Source: Macrostomum lignano
Lineage: Eukaryota
DNA length: 64,000 nt
Direction of reading: 5' to 3'
Assembly: GCA_002269645.1 (NCBI GenBank)
Contig: NIVC01001762.1
Coordinates: forward strand, 1-64,000
This document shows, piece after piece, positions 1 through 7,629 of the stretch. A program made the translations under genes and the position numbers. The stretch's first letter is position 1. Every line of letters starts with the position of its first letter. Below the pieces are notes generated by a model, which was given only the letters and a program-made list of their open reading frames with translations, made no database searches and was not told the DNA's origin.

Positions 1-225
1 CAATGCGATTTCCTTGCCAACATAGCAACACCACCCAGTGACCAAATGAGCCATTGTGCTGAAGTAGGACAAAAACAAACTTGTTTTCAAAGGAAATTGA
101 TGATCTAAATTTTCTTTTTACATTCAAGGGCAGAGAATTTTTATAGCGCAAATGTAAAGTAACTATGAGAAATTTTGGTAAGGCAAAAATTTTCTGGCGA
201 GATTAAGTAGTTGAATTGCATCCAT
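1..225 (-). pseudogene. Adenain-like (adenovirus/Ulp1-type) cysteine protease, N-terminal part, one apparent frameshift, truncated by the window edge
   Basis: ATG at 225 gives MDAIQLLNLARKFLPYQN; after a one-base shift the frame reads FLIVTLHLRYKNSLP...FVFVLLQHNGSFGHWVVLLCW. GHW plus a hydrophobic strand fits the catalytic-His motif; it lies directly after the hexon. Confidence 0.65.
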
Positions 226-226
226 G

Positions 227-1513
227 TCAATTAAGAGGAATAGTCAGCAAAAGCTCTCGGTGCTTGGTGACCTCAATCAGCGAGTCATACAGGCACATAG
301 CAATCAGGGACACCGCTTCATTCAGAGCCTGTTGGAAGCGAATCTCCAGCCGCAGGTTGCCGCTCCTTCTGTCCGTACCACAGAGCCGCTCCCTCGGGTG
401 TGAGATCGAATGCAAACACCGTGGTGTTGTTGGAGAAGAGCTGGTAGGGGATCCACGGGACCGAGTTTGTGTGGCCTTGCAGATTGACAGCTTTTCAGGT
501 AGTGCAAGTATTCTCTTACGAAGGAATTGTTTTCAGGTGTGAAGGCGCCGTGGCACACGGTTTCCCCACCTTTCTTTAGAGCAATCGGCTAAGGTTGAAG
601 CTCTGGAACTGTAACGGGCTCGCGTGATGATGACCGTTGAATGCTCGGTGGCTCACGAAGGCCAGCATGATGAACTTCGGCAATTTTCCATGAGTGAATC
701 CTTCAATGTTTTTTGACTGAATACCCTGGGGTAGGATGAAGTTCTGCATTTCAGTTCGCTCGATGGGATACAGTGCATTTTGGTTTGTCAGCCCCTGCTC
801 ATGGGCCAGGCTGATGTGGGGCATCACTTTGACTCGGCGAAGATGCAGAATGCTGTGAGAGATTTCCATTCGGTATGCCCGCGTTGTTTGCATTCGGGGT
901 TCTGATGGCAAAGGCCCCATCGCTGGGGACCAGTTTGATGTGCAGGTGCAGATTGCTTAGCAGAAACACTGGGCACTGGAAAACATCGCTGAAGAGCGGC
1001 CCCGCATACTCCATCCATTGGGATTCCCTGTGGCTCTCTCCGTGTGCTCTTCAGCTGCGAGTTCGGCTCCAGGAAGCCAGCAGGGTAAAGTTTTAGTTGC
1101 TGGGCATCGGATGAGCTCATTAGTGCTTTGAAGTACGCATGGTAGGATAGAGCTGGTCTCCACCAGACACCACTCGCTGGTTAATGCTCACAATTACATC
1201 TGAGAAGGCTGTAGACAGAACAAAATTTTCTGGGTGCACGTCACTGTCTCTGCGCTCGGTGATGATGCCATCTCCATCTCGAACATCCTCCCTCAGCAAA
1301 CCCCCATCCAGTCTCACAAGGCGGCAGCGAATATAAAGAAAAGAATTAAGCAGATCTGTATATTCATCGGCAGATTGGTGGCAGTCAAATTCAATGGAGA
1401 GTTTGCAACAATGGAATTAACTGGTGAATATCAACATAAGTAGCTTTTTCAATGCAGGTTTGTAGAACGGGCGTCTTAAATAAATCAAGTCTGGGATTGA
1501 ATCCGTAAGCCAT
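227..1513 (-). pseudogene. Major capsid protein (hexon, double jelly-roll) of Polinton/adintovirus type, at least 8 frameshifts
   Basis: Hexon motifs occur in order across frames: LDLFKTPVLQTCIE, (I)EFD...EYTDLLNSFLYIRCRL, VHPENFVLSTAFSDVIVSIN, YP(Y)HAYFKAL, EYAGPLFSDVF...LHIKL, LRRVKV...LAH...ALYPIER, GKLPKFIMLAFV...AFNG, FVREY, VFAFDLTPE, GNLRLEIRFQQAL...YDSLIEV. Span about 430 codons. Confidence 0.85.
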
Positions 1514-1515
1514 GT

Positions 1516-1892
1516 CTATGACAGAGAGTCGAGCACGCGTTTCACAGTTTTCTTGCTGACTTTTTGCTTTCGCTTTCCTCCGCCTGCTCTATTCTTCTTT
1601 GCTTTCGTCTTCCTATTCTTAAGCTTTTTCCCACTAGCCTTGCTCGACCTCTTACTGCGATTTCCACCAGTTGCCTTTCGGGTGCCCTTCTTTTTCTTCA
1701 ATCGTTTCGGACTTGCTTCAGTATTTCTTTTGCGCCTGACGTTGCTAAGCGTCGAGGCTGATGATGATGATATAGCCGCTGGCGGAGGCTGGTATGTCAT
1801 GATCCCTGGGAAGCTCCCACAGCCATAGAGTGCAGGCTTTTCGTGTCCTGTCCTCACCCCGAATATTGCTGGATTAGCTGCTGGTAGTTCAT
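1516..1892 (-). CDS. Small Lys/Arg-rich putative virion core protein (pVII-like); one G apparently missing in the run at 1857-1860
   Basis: Lies between penton and hexon. The C-terminal half is very basic (KRLKKKKGTRK...GGGKRKQKVSKK). The ATG at 1892 overlaps the penton stop. Restoring one G gives MNYQQLIQQYSGVRTGHEKPALYGCGSFPGIMTYQ... Without repair, an intact ORF starts at 1800. Confidence 0.6.
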
Positions 1893-2706
1893 TGAATGCG
1901 TTTCTCCTGAATTTGAACTGTAAGCAGAACAGGGCTGTGAGTCTGTGCAATCAGTGGGCAACCATAGATGTCCCGCAGCTGAACTCGAATGCTGTGAAGA
2001 AGACTGATTCGTTGAATCGGGAAGAATATTGTTTTCTTAAATATTTTTGTTTGATAGTTGCCCCATTCAATGCCAGCTTTCATTCCAACTGTTCTCAACA
2101 AGGAGCTCCAGTTGCAATTAGTTGACTCAACGATACTGCAGTGCACATTGATTAAGCTGGTGCGCGGGCAGCCAATGCAATGCTCGATACGCGGCTCCCT
2201 GGCTGGATTTTCACAGCCTGGTTTCCAAATCCCAGCCAATGCAGAATTTTACTAGATGGAAGAAACAGCTCTGCTCTCGCAGTGTTGTTGTGCACCACAG
2301 TTCGTGAGTTGCGGATTTCGAACTTCATACCAAATTCCCTGTTGCCACTACGCCCCATCAGGCCGGACTCATCAGCCTCCATCTCAGACTCCCTGTCACT
2401 CATTGCATCAAAGAACAGCGAATCAGAGTTGGCCAGCAGCTCATTCAGGCGCTCCACCAGCTCCTCCACTCTAGCAAAGCGTCCGGGTTGAAGAACCAGG
2501 GCCTCATGCTCTCTTCCATCTGAGACAGTGAAGCAGTAAGGCTCGTCAACATTGAACCATGCAGCAGGCAGATGGATTTCAGCCAGACCTGCCTCATAGT
2601 CCACATTTCGATCCAAGTAAATAGGTGAAGGCAGGTAAAAATTAAAGTCACTAGGAGTACCTTCAGCATGCTCACTGTTAATCAAAATAGTTCGCATTAT
2701 AATCAT
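1889..2706 (-). pseudogene. Minor capsid protein (penton) of Polinton/adintovirus type, one frameshift near 2170
   Basis: N-part FNFYLPSPIYLD...YEAGLAEIHLPAAWFNV (ORF 2152-2706) continues in the -1 frame as SLINVHCSIVES...SLLRTV...FFPI...IRVQLRDIYG (ORF 1889-2239); both halves resemble adintovirus penton motifs. Confidence 0.75.
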
Positions 2707-2734
2707 AAACTACATGATGAGGGCTGTGCCAAAG

Positions 2735-3805
2735 CTAAACCTTTCTTAAGTCTTTTTCATCCACCCAGCCAGTCGAGTCGTAGCCCGCCCATTTCACCAG
2801 ATAGCGAATTTTTCCCTTCCGCTTCTCCGTTTTCAGGATCTTCTCAATCACATACAGCCGCTGTGAGTCCGGGACAGCCTGCAGCTCGTGCTCATGGAAG
2901 AGTCCTCGAATCTCTTGCCCCCGCATGTCTTTAATCTTGTACATGTAGGGATAATGTTTTGGGGCTCTGCTCACCACGGTGTACACTTCCTCACTCCAGC
3001 TCGCTTTGTATCCCTTTTTGAATATCCGTGGAGCATTGGAAATTCTCACTGACTGGTTTTCAGCGAACTTAGGCTTCTTTAATTTTTCTAGAGTCTCGAC
3101 TGCTTTTCCATCGTACAGGTTCATCCACACTTCAGATTCATTCTCTTTGCAGACACTAGTGGGTGCCATTTTGATGCTTCTGTGGTAGGTATTGTTGTAG
3201 GATTTTACCAGCTTAGGCAGCACATCAAGCCAGTGCAGTGTGCTCTTGTAGGTGAAGTAGCGCCACATTCTACTTTTCAGAGTTCGATTCCATCGCTCAA
3301 TGACAGCTGCCTTCTGCTCGCTGTTAGTTGGGAAAGCCAGAATCCCTCTGTCAATGCAGTATTGACGGAAAGTGGAGTTGATAAATTCCTTCCCCTGATC
3401 TGTGCGAACTGTGCGTGGCTGGCGCTTTGAACTTCTCAGTATGCTCTCGAATGCTGACTTCACTTCTGCAGCAGATTTATTTTTCAGTGCCTTGGCCCAA
3501 GCACATTTTGAGAGCACGTCAATGCATGTGAGAATATATTTGTAGCCTTTATTATGCTTTGCGAATGGAATCATTTCCACTAAGTCAAGTTCCCACTGAT
3601 CATCGATTGCGCGCACTATGATTGGGGCCCTTGGATATCGCCTCCTAGCTGGCTTGTGCAGAGTGTGCACTGGCTGCTCGCTGAGCCACTGCTCAATGCT
3701 CTTTGCAGATATTCGATCACCTCTTTGCCTCACTTCATGCAGCAACTTTGAGGCACAAGAAAAACTAGCCGGTTGCTCAGGTTTCAAATAAATTTTCTCC
3801 ATCAT
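2735..3805 (-). CDS. Polinton-type retroviral-like (rve/DDE) integrase with C-terminal chromodomain, intact, 356 aa
   Basis: DDE core: QWELDLVEM, YILTCIDVLSK, VRTDQGKEF, IERWNRTLK. Typical N-terminus IYLKPEQPASF. C-terminal chromodomain YVIEKILK...YLVKWAGY...GWV. Confidence 0.93.
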   Translation of the reverse strand: MMEKIYLKPEQPASFSCASKLLHEVRQRGDRISAKSIEQWLSEQPVHTLHKPARRRYPRAPIIVRAIDDQWELDLVEMIPFAKHNKGYKYILTCIDVLSKCAWAKALKNKSAAEVKSAFESILRSSKRQPRTVRTDQGKEFINSTFRQYCIDRGILAFPTNSEQKAAVIERWNRTLKSRMWRYFTYKSTLHWLDVLPKLVKSYNNTYHRSIKMAPTSVCKENESEVWMNLYDGKAVETLEKLKKPKFAENQSVRISNAPRIFKKGYKASWSEEVYTVVSRAPKHYPYMYKIKDMRGQEIRGLFHEHELQAVPDSQRLYVIEKILKTEKRKGKIRYLVKWAGYDSTGWVDEKDLRKV

Positions 3806-4125
3806 GGGTTTATCAAGATACGTGCCTATCCACCTGCTCTAGCTGTACAGTATTTTTTCTTAAGTAGAAATTTATATTCCAATTAAATGATAGAGAAACG
3901 AGTGGCAAATTAATTTATTACTGTCAGATTGAAACCTCTAACATCGTAACAGTCGGTGTATTTTCCGAAAGCAAACAATCCATAAAAACGAACACTAAAA
4001 CACTCGCACACCAGCATTTCAGAAATAGCAGAGATAAAAAACAGCATAGTGCCGTCAGGCTGGATAATCATGTGCAAGCTAAAAGTAATTTAGTTAGTCC
4101 AATGCATTCAAAGCATTCTAGCTGT

Positions 4126-4902
4126 TCAGTTATCAAAGCGAACATTGGGCTGCAGCCTCATCGCGTCCTGCCGACGAAGTTGAAATGGCAGCTTTCGCTT
4201 CCTGCTGCTGCTGCTCACCGTCGAAGCCGCTGCATGCGCCCTGAACTGATACCACACCGGATCTTCCTCAAGGTTGGTGTCCCGCTGCGGAAGCAGTCCA
4301 GCATCAGAATCAACCGAAGGTATCGGTGTGGATGTGATTGGCTCAGTCACAATGCGCGGCCTTGTGGGCGAGCTAACGTCCTCGTCATCAGCATGATCTC
4401 CGCCCTCATCAGTCTCCATTATGGGCTTCGTGTCCTGGTCAGCCTCCAACTTGAGCTTCTTGTCCTCTTCCTCCTCTTCCTCATCAGACTCCAGCTCGTA
4501 CTGCATTGTGTTCCTCAAGGGAGCCACCAGCTGACCGTCGATCCAGGAGGCGATTTTCCAGAGCTTCTGCCACAGCGGCGGAGTCAGTGGTACGGCGTTT
4601 CGTCTCAAAAACTCCTCGCAGCAATCTTCCGGCAGCCGTTTGAGCCAAATGATGCCGCCTTTGACTTCCACAAACTTATCGAAGCCGAGTTTCACGACCT
4701 TGGGCTCGTTGTTGCGTGCAGAAATCACAAGTGAGCGTTTCACCTCCTTCAATTTCTTCCATTGGTGAACATTCAGGTTGAATCCTGGGACGCCTGGCTT
4801 CAGACTTGCCGTGCTGCCGTGTCGGTAAAATTTGCGAATAGCGATAAATTTTTGTCCTTCAAACTCCTGGACTTGTGCCTTATAGCCTTCACAGATGTCC
4901 AT
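4126..4902 (-). CDS. Protein with two tandem PC4/Sub1-like ssDNA-binding domains and an acidic tail, 258 aa
   Basis: Domain 1 AQVQEFEGQKFIAIRKFY...LKPGVPGFNLNVHQWKKLKE matches the PC4 pattern (V.EF.G...I.IR.YY...LKPG..GI.L...QW..L). Domain 2 LGFDKFVEVKGGIIWLKR...NAVPLTPPLWQKL is a more degenerate copy. Acidic run EEEEEED; basic patch RKRK. Confidence 0.75.
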   Translation of the reverse strand: MDICEGYKAQVQEFEGQKFIAIRKFYRHGSTASLKPGVPGFNLNVHQWKKLKEVKRSLVISARNNEPKVVKLGFDKFVEVKGGIIWLKRLPEDCCEEFLRRNAVPLTPPLWQKLWKIASWIDGQLVAPLRNTMQYELESDEEEEEEDKKLKLEADQDTKPIMETDEGGDHADDEDVSSPTRPRIVTEPITSTPIPSVDSDAGLLPQRDTNLEEDPVWYQFRAHAAASTVSSSSRKRKLPFQLRRQDAMRLQPNVRFDN

Positions 4903-5007
4903 TTTCCTTTCGCAATTGAAAACTCACAAAAGTTAAAAGCTGAGGAAAATTTCGGATGAAATTTTGGATTTGAAAAATTGAGAATTCTTTCTTGTCAATT
5001 TCGGGGC

Positions 5008-5067
5008 TTATATACCCTCGACCGAACCACCCCAAACCACCCATCCCACTCCGGGCTCTGTGATTGG
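5008..5067 (-). promoter_or_regulatory. Pol II core promoter for the Polinton minus-strand cassette
   Basis: Minus-strand TATATAA at 5014-5008 and CCAAT at 5067-5063 with GGGTGG-like boxes between, about 105 nt upstream of the PC4-like ATG. Confidence 0.5.
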
Positions 5068-5108
5068 CTCTTTCGCAAACATTATTTCCAATTACATAGA
5101 TTAACATC

Positions 5109-5650
5109 TTATCTCTGCAGTGTTAACCACCCCAATGCAAAGAGATAGGCCGCCTCTCCTCCTATCTCTGCAGTGCTAACCACCCCCAATGCAAAGAGAT
5201 AGGCCGCCTCTCCTCCTATCTCTGCAGTGTTAACCACCCCCAATGCAAAGAGATAGGCCGCCTCTCCTCCTATCTCTGCAGTGTTAACCATCTCCAGTGT
5301 AAAGAAATAGGCCGCCTCTTCTCCTATCACTCCTGTGTTAAGCAGAGATAGAGCTCATATCTCTGCAGTGCTTAGCCGTCCCCAATGCACAGAGATAGAG
5401 CTCATATCTCTGCAGTGCTTAGCCGTCCCCAATGCACAGAGATAGAGCTCATATCTCTGCAGTGCTTAGCCGTCCCCAATGCACAGAGATAGAGCTCATA
5501 TCTCTGCAGTGCTTAGCCGTCCCCAATGCACAGAGATAGAGCTCATATCTCTGCAGTGCTTAGCCGTCCCCAATGCACAGAGATAGAGCTCATATCTCTG
5601 CAGTGCTTAGCCGTCCCCAATGCACAGAGATAGGGCTCATATCTCCGCAG
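5109..5650. repeat. Subterminal tandem repeats of the Polinton TIR (about 4 x 53-54 bp, then about 6.5 x 47 bp)
   Basis: The two unit types are related and each carries an AGAGATA...TATCTCT inverted repeat. Confidence 0.8.
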
Positions 5651-5898
5651 TGTATTTTTCCCTGTACATTTGCATTGCCGCCTATCTCGCCAGTGCTAGT
5701 GCGGCAGTATCATAATTCGCCCTACTACTGGCACAATCTGCCCTATGACCTCCACACTTGAGATAAGAGAGCAATGCCTTCCTGCTGGAGCTCAGTAGCT
5801 CACTGCAGCAGCCCAAACCCACACACTCAAGTTCGTTCTGATCAATACAAGGTCGAGTTTTTTTAATAGAAAGCTGCTTTACATTTCAGAAATATATT

Positions 5899-6730
5899 TT
5901 GCATAATCCTGCTGTCTGTACAGGAGTTTTTATACTCAGCAACATTAGTTTGCATAATCCTGCTGTCTGTACAGGAGTTTTTATACTCAGCAACATTAGT
6001 TTGTATAATCCTGCTGTCTGTACAGGAGTTTTAATACTCAGCAACATTAGTTTGTATAATCCTGCTGTCTGTACAGGAGTTTTTATACTCAGCAACATTA
6101 GTTTGTATAATCCTGCTATATGTACAGGAGTTTTTATACTCAGCAACATTAGTTTGTATAATCCTGCTGTCTGTACAGGAGTTTTTATACTCAGCAACAT
6201 TAGTTTGTATAATCCTGCTGTCTGTACAGGAGTTTTTATACTCAGCAACATTAGTTTGTATAATCCTGCTATATGTACAGGAGTTTTAATACTCAGCAAC
6301 ATTAGTTTGTATAATCCTGCTGTCTGTACAGGAGTTTTTATACTCAGCAGCATTAGTTTGTATAATCCTGCTGTCTATATAGGAGTTTTTATACTCAGCA
6401 GCATTAGTTTGTATAATCCTGCTGTCTGTATAGGAGTTTTTATACTCAGCAGCATTAGTTTGTATAATCCTGCTGTCTGTATAGGAGTTTTTATACTCAG
6501 CAGCATTAGTTTGTATAATCCTGCTGTCTGTATAGGAGTTTTTATACTCAGCAGCATTAGTTTGTATAATCCTGCTGTCTGTATAGGAGTTTTTATACTC
6601 AGCGGCATTAGTTTGTATAATCCTGCTGTCTGTATAGGAGTTTTTATACTCAGCAGCATTAGTTTGTATAATCCTGCTGTCTGTATAGGAGTTTTTATAC
6701 TCAGCAACATTAGTTTGTATAATCCTGCTA
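5899..6730. repeat. 51-bp minisatellite, about 16 copies
   Basis: Unit TTAGTTTGTATAATCCTGCTGTCTGTACAGGAGTTTTTATACTCAGCAACA (17-aa periodicity in the spurious ORFs). Confidence 0.95.
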
Positions 6731-7629
6731 TCTGGAGCAGGTGCTGATAACTGATAAAGTGCTGATAAATGCCATTTGAAGTTATCAGCACCAAAGGTGA
6801 TTATTTTGATTAACTTTACTTATTAGACAATTTTATTTTATTATATATTTAAAACAAAAATAGACAAAAATCATTTAATCTAATACTATAGCAACTATGC
6901 TTGGAGTATGATATTCAGATAATAAAACAAACTTTTAAAATCAGCTTTTAGGGCCTATTGTCAATCAGAGGTTGGCAAACTCCAGCCTATAGGCTAGAGC
7001 TAGCTTACTATATCTTTAAGTCTGGCCTATAGCACTCTTACTAATTAACAATATAAAAGTAGCCTATAAATCAATTTTTGTATTGAAACATTTAACTTTA
7101 TAAAGAAAATTAGCTTTTATCCCATCATTCCTATAAGACTATGAGTTTTGATTATGAAGTTGTTGGTTGTATTAGCTTAAATTGTCAATTTTTTTAGCAA
7201 AATACCTTTAGGAATGGATACTGTCATCAAAAAGATTTTTTCCTACATAGGCATGATATAAAGACTAGGCCTATAGTAGTCATGCATCCTAATGTACATT
7301 CATAGTGAACATTAGGATGGGCCTATTATTAGGCCTAGACATATGGCTATAAATTTATCAAGGCATAAATCAAGATATAAATAGATAATCAATGCAAAAT
7401 GCAAACTTTTTTTGGGAAAAATGATATGATAATGATTTTTAATTAGATACAAGATGTTTTAAAAATAAAAATAAGTTACATTGTCATTAAAAATAAGTTA
7501 TTAACGAAAGTTATAAATACAATAATAAATTTACATTACTGCTTAGGCTGGCAATCTTCTAGTTTACTGTGTTAAATAAATTATTTGCCTACTTTCAAAA
7601 TTTTTAGCCTACCTACTGACTGCCCATAT

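Follow-up and report, generated by a model that had tools for sequence, protein, structure and literature searches.

How do Polintons time the expression of their genes, and do they make particles? The question is raised by positions 1-5729 of a 64,000-nt stretch of the genome of the flatworm Macrostomum lignano (G000:C1762:1-64000; GenBank contig NIVC01001762.1), hereafter called the window. These positions are the integrase arm of a Polinton, an adintovirus-like element apparently of Alpha type. Capsid-bearing Polintons are well known; it is a gene for a TATA-binding protein (TBP), a box and a polymerase mosaic that set the window element apart. The TBP-family gene and the 7-base box, WTAAGAA, offer a directly testable answer: on balance, we favor the view, based on sequence comparison, that the element TBP binds this box and that the genes for integrase, capsid and packaging are thereby switched on through host RNA polymerase II (Pol II).

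An earlier note, made from the letters of this DNA, had described an adintovirus-like Polinton arm in an invertebrate host, and its AGTAGT terminus, gene order and single-strand layout were all recovered. From the terminus, AGTAGTAGGG at 5729, two tandem arrays, a TATA box and the genes for a PC4-domain protein, integrase, penton, basic protein, major capsid protein and protease follow inward on the minus strand. The window begins at base 1 of its contig, C1762, which is the contig end, and is not extendable upstream; the rest of the element was taken from contig C2880, which holds the same insertion, 4.8 kb of flank included (99.8%). Beyond the window genes, C2880 gives the protease, an ATPase, orf112, orf206, orf283 and TBP and then, on the other strand, the polymerase pPolB. 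The upstream pPolB, ATPase and matching terminal inverted repeat (TIR) that had been predicted were thus found, on C2880 and on a further contig, C2366. The host was also rightly called, and a 99%-identical TBP is recorded under Macrostomum lignano.

Reading upstream of the genes, we repeatedly saw CTTAAGAA. The WTAAGAA boxes of the window are given below, with distances to the gene start in family 1, which includes the window lineage, and in the more distant family 2.

3857..3863, minus strand: WTAAGAA box before the integrase, at -34 to -59 in other lineages
2743..2749, minus strand: WTAAGAA box ahead of the penton gene, lying within the 3' end of the integrase
2034..2040, minus strand: WTAAGAA box ahead of the basic-protein gene, lying within the penton gene; -148/-149 in family 1, -139 in family 2
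1616..1622, minus strand: WTAAGAA box ahead of the major capsid gene, lying within the basic-protein gene; -110 in family 1, -106 in family 2

Sense matches to WTAAGAA lay within 160 nt of a gene start in 9/9 cases in the window lineage, 7/7 in a lineage 76% alike and 7/7 in family 2 (23/23), these zones making up 22-23% of the length (P 1e-6 to 4e-5); shuffles gave means of 1.0-1.3 and maxima of 5-6. There were no antisense matches in the three elements and no matches in the PC4 or polymerase arms of the window lineage, and an unbiased 7-mer count ranked WTAAGAA first. Family 2 has almost no DNA alignable with family 1, yet carries the box at the same genes. The box lies at differing distances from lineage to lineage, which speaks for a cis-element and against shared coding sequence. 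Canonical TATA boxes precede PC4 and orf451, the genes at either end of the element, and before orf283 a TATA box and WTAAGAA overlap.

The candidate reader of the box was characterized by a genome profile search with PF00352, which gave 330 candidates; of the 150 that were scored, 12 fell at six host-like loci and the other 138 were weaker. Twenty TBP-anchored stretches were chosen to cover different frame lengths, and 18 of them contained at least six element genes, the other two containing one element gene. The TBP gene was present in every related lineage examined. The element TBP, 190 aa long, matches PF00352 (E 8e-25) over both repeats and also matches solved TBPs in PDB, and its structure model (Atlas) has a pTM of 0.79 and a TM of 0.87 to TBP clusters; both the two repeats and the saddle fold that define the TBP family are therefore present. 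The ratio of non-synonymous to synonymous substitution rates (dN/dS), 0.20-0.37, indicates a divergent TBP under purifying selection.

The element TBP is 25-29% identical to the host TBP. Like cellular TBP and TRF proteins (PF00352), it has the two-repeat saddle, the YEPE.F loop of the second repeat and aromatics at the four wedge positions. Unlike them, it is intronless and present in more than 100 copies, the second-repeat QNMV of the host is KTIT, and Phe positions of the first repeat are Trp and Tyr; the first-repeat Asn is kept. These residues, kept or altered, presumably contact DNA or TFIIB. The KTIT change is common to family 2 and three metagenomic proteins. In a tree of 18 rows, unrooted and with long-branch warnings, 13 element-type TBPs fell on one side of a 96/95 branch; the host TRF-like row was left out of one TBP alignment (wrong start). 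JGI contigs of equal length (6896, 7280, 6283) hold a family-2-like TBP and a capsid relative, which suggests that TBP-bearing Polintons may occur outside Macrostomum lignano; scans of viral and metagenome contigs for the element context outside this genome gave no match.

Other families in the same genome served as controls, with nine control elements fetched (five of family 3, four of family 4). Family 2 (L069-L086; 37 TBP matches) has the same central gene order, and its capsid protein is 38% identical to that of family 1. At most a short polymerase remnant was found in five of the six family 2 copies fetched; four keep TIR pairs with duplications. The family 2 integrase has a candidate GT-AG intron of ~105 nt, the flanks of which align with the uninterrupted frame of family 1. 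Family 3 (L091-L096, L101-L104) has a 142-aa TBP-like frame, without a Pfam match and only weakly matching our own profile; most of its central genes are preceded by a TATAAATA box (three sets counted). Family 4 (L087-L090, L097-L100) has a sense-strand TATAAGC box before most central genes (two elements examined); its best match to the TBP profile is a short repeat, not a TBP. One family 4 copy has a dUTPase-like frame (label by eye) beside the polymerase. A control of the form "no TBP, no box" failed, family 4 carrying a box of its own. These comparisons suggest that boxes are general across the families and that the link to TBP is suggestive, not exclusive.

Several points weigh against the proposed pairing of TBP and box. 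The motif was picked out by eye in the window lineage as YTTAAGAA and was loosened to WTAAGAA once family 2 had been seen, and the gene starts were assigned by ourselves. The protease and orf206 have no box, an exact box is also missing before the family 2 TBP gene and, in one lineage, before the capsid gene, the hexamer CTTAAG by itself shows little or no enrichment, and the distance from box to start ranges from 11 to 159 nt. In family 4, no TBP-like frame was found in the eight stretches searched; a box without a TBP there means that the box does not require TBP in cis.

These points bear on an alternative that we consider unlikely, namely that the box is a promoter for host TBP or for another conserved element protein (orf112, orf206 or orf283), the element TBP being employed otherwise, such as as a decoy for host TFIIB/TBP partners or as a repressor of early genes. 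A TAAG-core box without a detectable TBP in family 4 speaks for it, as do the one box shared by families 1 and 2 though their TBPs are only 38% identical and the presence of orf112- and orf206-like genes in families 1-4. However, CTTAAGAA bears little resemblance to a canonical TATA box, which the family 4 box resembles closely. Both TBP clades, moreover, share changes at positions that presumably face the DNA, and in family 3 another mini-TBP-like frame goes together with another box, TATAAATA.

Under the reading that we prefer, in which the element TBP drives the boxes, host TBP would first read the terminal genes with canonical TATA boxes (PC4 and orf451) and the TATA-overlapping box before orf283/TBP, as early genes. 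The protein-primed polymerase would then copy the excised linear genome from the TIRs; such replication is known for the family (PMC11161782). The element TBP would then drive the central block late, namely the integrase, penton, core, capsid and ATPase genes, from their boxes. That the early host-TBP phase, the protein-primed copying and the late TBP-driven block all hold jointly seems to us slightly more probable than the contrary. Contigs of two sequencing runs, guessed to be RNA, covered genes and spacers alike and showed no splice joint, and are uninformative on transcription.

A known counterpart is the late pre-initiation complex of beta- and gammaherpesviruses, in which ORF24 of KSHV (Kaposi's sarcoma-associated herpesvirus), Epstein-Barr virus (EBV) BcRF1 and human cytomegalovirus (HCMV) UL87 act on a TATT box (PMC6541308). 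Common to both systems are a virus-encoded TBP-like factor, a modified TATA box before structural genes and host Pol II. The herpesvirus factors, in contrast, are large TBP mimics in a six-protein complex, whereas here a true PF00352 protein of 190 aa, its function being a prediction, is encoded by a 17-kb integrating element. Box and TBP factor co-occur in the element. If the proposal is correct, the window element would hold the smallest counterpart to the late complex of herpesviruses, as well as a natural case of re-tuned TBP specificity.

Like the Polintons/Mavericks and proposed Alpha adintoviruses described in PMC8502044 and PMC4028283, the element has an rve integrase, a pfam03175 pPolB with an OTU-like Cys motif, an FtsK/A32-like ATPase, adenain, a double-jelly-roll capsid with the penton one gene upstream, TIRs and 6-bp duplications. 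Unlike them, it adds TBP and PC4-domain genes and a shared non-canonical box. Within the accessible parts of PMC8502044 and 10.1101/697771, TBP appears only as a figure-legend label for MELD viruses (Fig. 5 of PMC8502044, section on non-animal datasets), and PMC10675990 mentions TATA-binding proteins only for mirusvirus-like elements. The main texts of PMC11161782, PMC10748475, PMC11131425, PMC11071296 and 10.64898/2026.10.13.758929 mention neither TBP nor PC4. Our search, which left most subscription papers outside, found no literature on Polintons of Macrostomum, nor any describing a Polinton TBP that has a promoter of its own.

We then consider whether the element has the genes to build a particle. 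The capsid module of the window reads as follows.

1889..2706, minus strand: minor capsid protein (penton) with a single jelly-roll; frame broken once, near 2180
1516..1892, minus strand: basic protein of 125 aa, its last 75 residues holding 33 K/R; frame broken once, near 1860
230..1513, minus strand: hexon-like major capsid protein with a double jelly-roll; split into five pieces in three frames, 3' end approximate
1..225, minus strand: adenain-like protease, 5' part, truncated by the contig start; frame broken once, near 190

Pfam and PDB sequence searches of the capsid and penton pieces gave no match, so both were identified by their folds, the capsid on a natural relative, P0006 (427 aa, 78% identical), of which the window pieces cover residues 1-423, and the penton on the open 272-aa frame of C2880. 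The P0006 model (pLDDT 77) matched the double-jelly-roll capsids of mavirus, Sputnik and PBCV-1 at E ~1e-13; its best match in a viral library was a bracovirus protein (27% identity). The penton model (pLDDT 89.5) best matched the mavirus penton (E 1e-8) and adenovirus penton bases. The 170-aa open protease frame of C2880 matched PF00770 at E 7e-5, above the cut-off. The basic protein, which had no family match in a profile search, is a candidate core protein by position and composition. These results confirm that the capsid genes are real and the particle-building set complete, in line with the full morphogenesis module of the earlier note. The outcomes that the note had named as refuting its reading, an upstream region lacking pPolB, ATPase or TIR, or a hexon and penton that match no jelly-roll capsids, did not arise. 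Such a module is known and expected in Polintons (PMC4028283) and is by itself ordinary. The gene content and the purifying selection on the capsid gene (dN/dS 0.06 between lineages) suggest a virus-capable lineage, and it is rather likely that the capsid genes are used, at least at times, to make particles. At the second triad position, where proteases of this type usually have Asp or Glu, the protease here (L002:1342-1854 and homologues) has Asn in 6/6 frames of families 1 and 2.

The broken frames of the window raise the question of whether this copy has decayed. Against the same-site C2880, the window shows 20 indel events, 19 of them of a single base, and one substitution, 14 of the events falling within the first 1560 nt; compared with a copy from another site, it has 34 indels and one substitution. 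Short-read contigs from four runs of four studies disagree with the window at 12/12 listed indel places (14 more places lie beyond those listed), at full depth at all listed places in two runs and at 9/12 in the other two. The positions of the breaks differ from copy to copy, and the full 427-codon capsid frame was found in 3/20 stretches, which provide the intact paralogues that had been called for. This pattern fits uncorrected long-read error in a repeat, and the frame breaks of the window are probably assembly indels rather than decay. Weighing against this, only 3/20 assembled capsid frames are full length, the short-read contigs pool all copies and do not prove the window copy unbroken, and the same-site C2880 has breaks of its own. 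The earlier claim that the hexon is readable only across frames holds for this assembly, where it lies in five pieces, but probably does not describe the element itself: a cryptic hexon is unsupported as a biological feature, because the breaks look like assembly indels and related copies have full-length frames. Frame breaks in long-read repeats can look like decay, which calls for caution.

That the window copy is a truly decayed provirus, of a family that spreads only inside cells as a transposon without particles, we regard as improbable. A capsid gene in five pieces, 17/20 short capsid frames and the existence of deleted copies with perfect duplications (C754, 8.4 kb) would all fit it, but the 20:1 ratio of indels to substitutions at the same site, their clustering at the contig start and their differences between copies do not, and neither do the disagreeing short-read contigs or the capsid dN/dS of 0.06. 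A still weaker idea, that the element is virophage-like and its box a late promoter for a helper-virus RNA polymerase (baculovirus/nudivirus-type TAAG), is very improbable: the box does contain TAAG, the core of baculovirus late promoters, and virophage promoters matching the helper are reported, but the element carries a Pol II-type initiation factor, the candidate GT-AG intron of the family 2 integrase points to nuclear Pol II, and no helper virus came to light, none having been sought.

The central block, which carries the boxes, is joined to more than one polymerase. Among 12 elements there were eight pPolB types, 49-75% identical between types (42-73% by BLASTP), whereas the DNA of the block from capsid to orf283 was 96-97% identical to that of the window lineage in four other pPolB types, 88% in one and 76-77% in two. 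Similarity between lineages stops within the final 70 nt of TBP or directly beyond it. The TIRs are lineage-specific, and several combinations recur on separate contigs, which argues against assembly chimeras. We conclude that polymerase arms are very probably swapped between the lineages, against a central block that they share. The polymerase assorts independently of PC4, integrase and orf451; the idea that PC4 travels with the polymerase was rejected, elements with 94-98% identical PC4 having polymerases only 56-58% identical. Known counterparts are the replacement of pPolB in nematode Polintons (PMC10748475) and the mosaicism of replication and morphogenesis modules in Polisuviricotina (10.64898/2026.10.13.758929). 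Common to these and to the present genome are distant polymerases in otherwise near-identical elements and an HNH/Endonuclease-VII domain in the polymerase. The nematode elements have two pPolB classes, whereas here eight types occur among 12 elements of one genome, with similarity ending at the 3' end of TBP. The polymerase mosaic gives a within-genome view of module exchange. The most far-reaching reading, that flatworm Polintons are active nuclear viruses in which a captured and re-tuned TBP serves as a one-gene switch for late transcription, reading a private box before the virion and integrase genes, and the shared capsid block is swapped among at least eight polymerase lineages of one genome, is one that we put forward tentatively and with some doubt.

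The ends of the element and its insertion site are marked by the following features.

5730..5735: target-site duplication, 6 bp, one copy, host side; the identical six bases flank the other terminus on G000:C2366
5343..5729, minus strand: core part of the terminal inverted repeat, beginning AGTAGT; holds a 47-bp tandem array at 5343-5652 (TRF)
5110..5341, minus strand: inner subterminal 54-bp tandem array (TRF, 4.3 copies), part-shared with the far end of some copies

The 387-nt TIR core is 98-100% identical to the opposite ends of other copies. C2366, which has the polymerase arm, is the sole place in the genome where the family terminus follows the six flank bases of the insertion site (chance of such a match ~3%, given ~130 candidate termini), and it differs from C2880 by no substitutions and 16 gap openings over 6.8 kb. 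From ~19370 onward C2880 departs from the element, short of orf451, and runs out in host-type repeats, C2366 having the full polymerase arm; this end of C2880 is either a mis-join or a truncated homeologous copy. Six paired copies were fetched. Long TIRs with AGT repeats, expected of Polintons of 15-20 kb, were found 16.5-17.9 kb apart in five of them and 8.4 kb apart in the sixth, and the TIR core is 340-390 nt at 99% in 4/6. The 6-bp duplications are exact in 4/6, follow an extra 3-base terminal unit in one and are mismatched in one. These footprints show integration by the rve integrase with 6-bp duplications. On the host side, 170 nt from the insertion site, lies a 51-bp tandem array of 16 copies (window 5898-6734).

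The remaining genes and the promoter of the arm are listed here.

5008..5014, minus strand: canonical TATA box TATATAA, 112 nt before the PC4-gene start
4126..4902, minus strand: PC4-domain protein, 258 aa (PF02229 E 6e-8); one PC4 domain, a second conserved 65-aa domain and an acidic tail
2735..3805, minus strand: integrase, retroviral-like, open frame of 356 aa (PF00665 E 3e-13), with a C-terminal chromodomain (PF00385 E 2e-5); D-D-E present

The integrase is thus of the retroviral-like (rve) type that characterizes Polintons. A TATA box is retained at -76 to -112 before PC4 in the other lineages examined, and the box at 5008-5014 is a candidate early promoter. The PC4-domain protein, whose residues 1-128 have a dN/dS of 0.04 with dS saturated, is a candidate single-stranded DNA-binding protein or coactivator. 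The "tandem PC4" of the earlier note was borne out for the first repeat; no second repeat was detected, the 65-aa domain matching neither the first repeat nor PC4 in Pfam or PDB (hhalign E 0.28). On C2880 and on the other arm, pPolB is a 1152-codon frame (PF03175 E 2e-12) with motifs A, B and C and an HNH/Endonuclease-VII domain. An OTU-like C-F-x-Y-A-C motif lies near residue 105 in 5/5 polymerases, with no match to an OTU profile. The ATPase has a Walker A motif and weak profile matches (Pox_A32 E 0.04). The orf283 gene (L002:3591-4442), whose product has no Pfam or PDB match, overlaps the TBP gene by 110 codons in the window lineage; its conservation is limited to the first 165-171 residues, with an N-terminal D-x-[QE]-G motif that, we presume, resembles DEDD exonucleases (no match). 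An Rfam search of nine stretches found no group I introns.

The genome holds 64 exact 29-nt termini. Per 5 kb, the paired copies have 1-42 substitutions relative to the window, which indicates a young family; by these comparisons it is multi-copy and recently spreading, and the host, a laboratory flatworm, carries dozens of young copies. The host TBP (C70/C713/C1301) and a TRF-like gene (C350/C3090/C3513) occur three times each; loci are often triplicated in the assembly, so copy counts overstate insertions. The copy at G000:C1063:32651-50529 has no matching duplication, ~700 extra bases between protease and ATPase and a polymerase-side flank equal to that of the C2572 copy, and is possibly a chimeric assembly. 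The internally deleted 8.4-kb copy on C754 (G000:C754:359773-368168) retains both TIRs and a perfect duplication and is without polymerase, ATPase and TBP.

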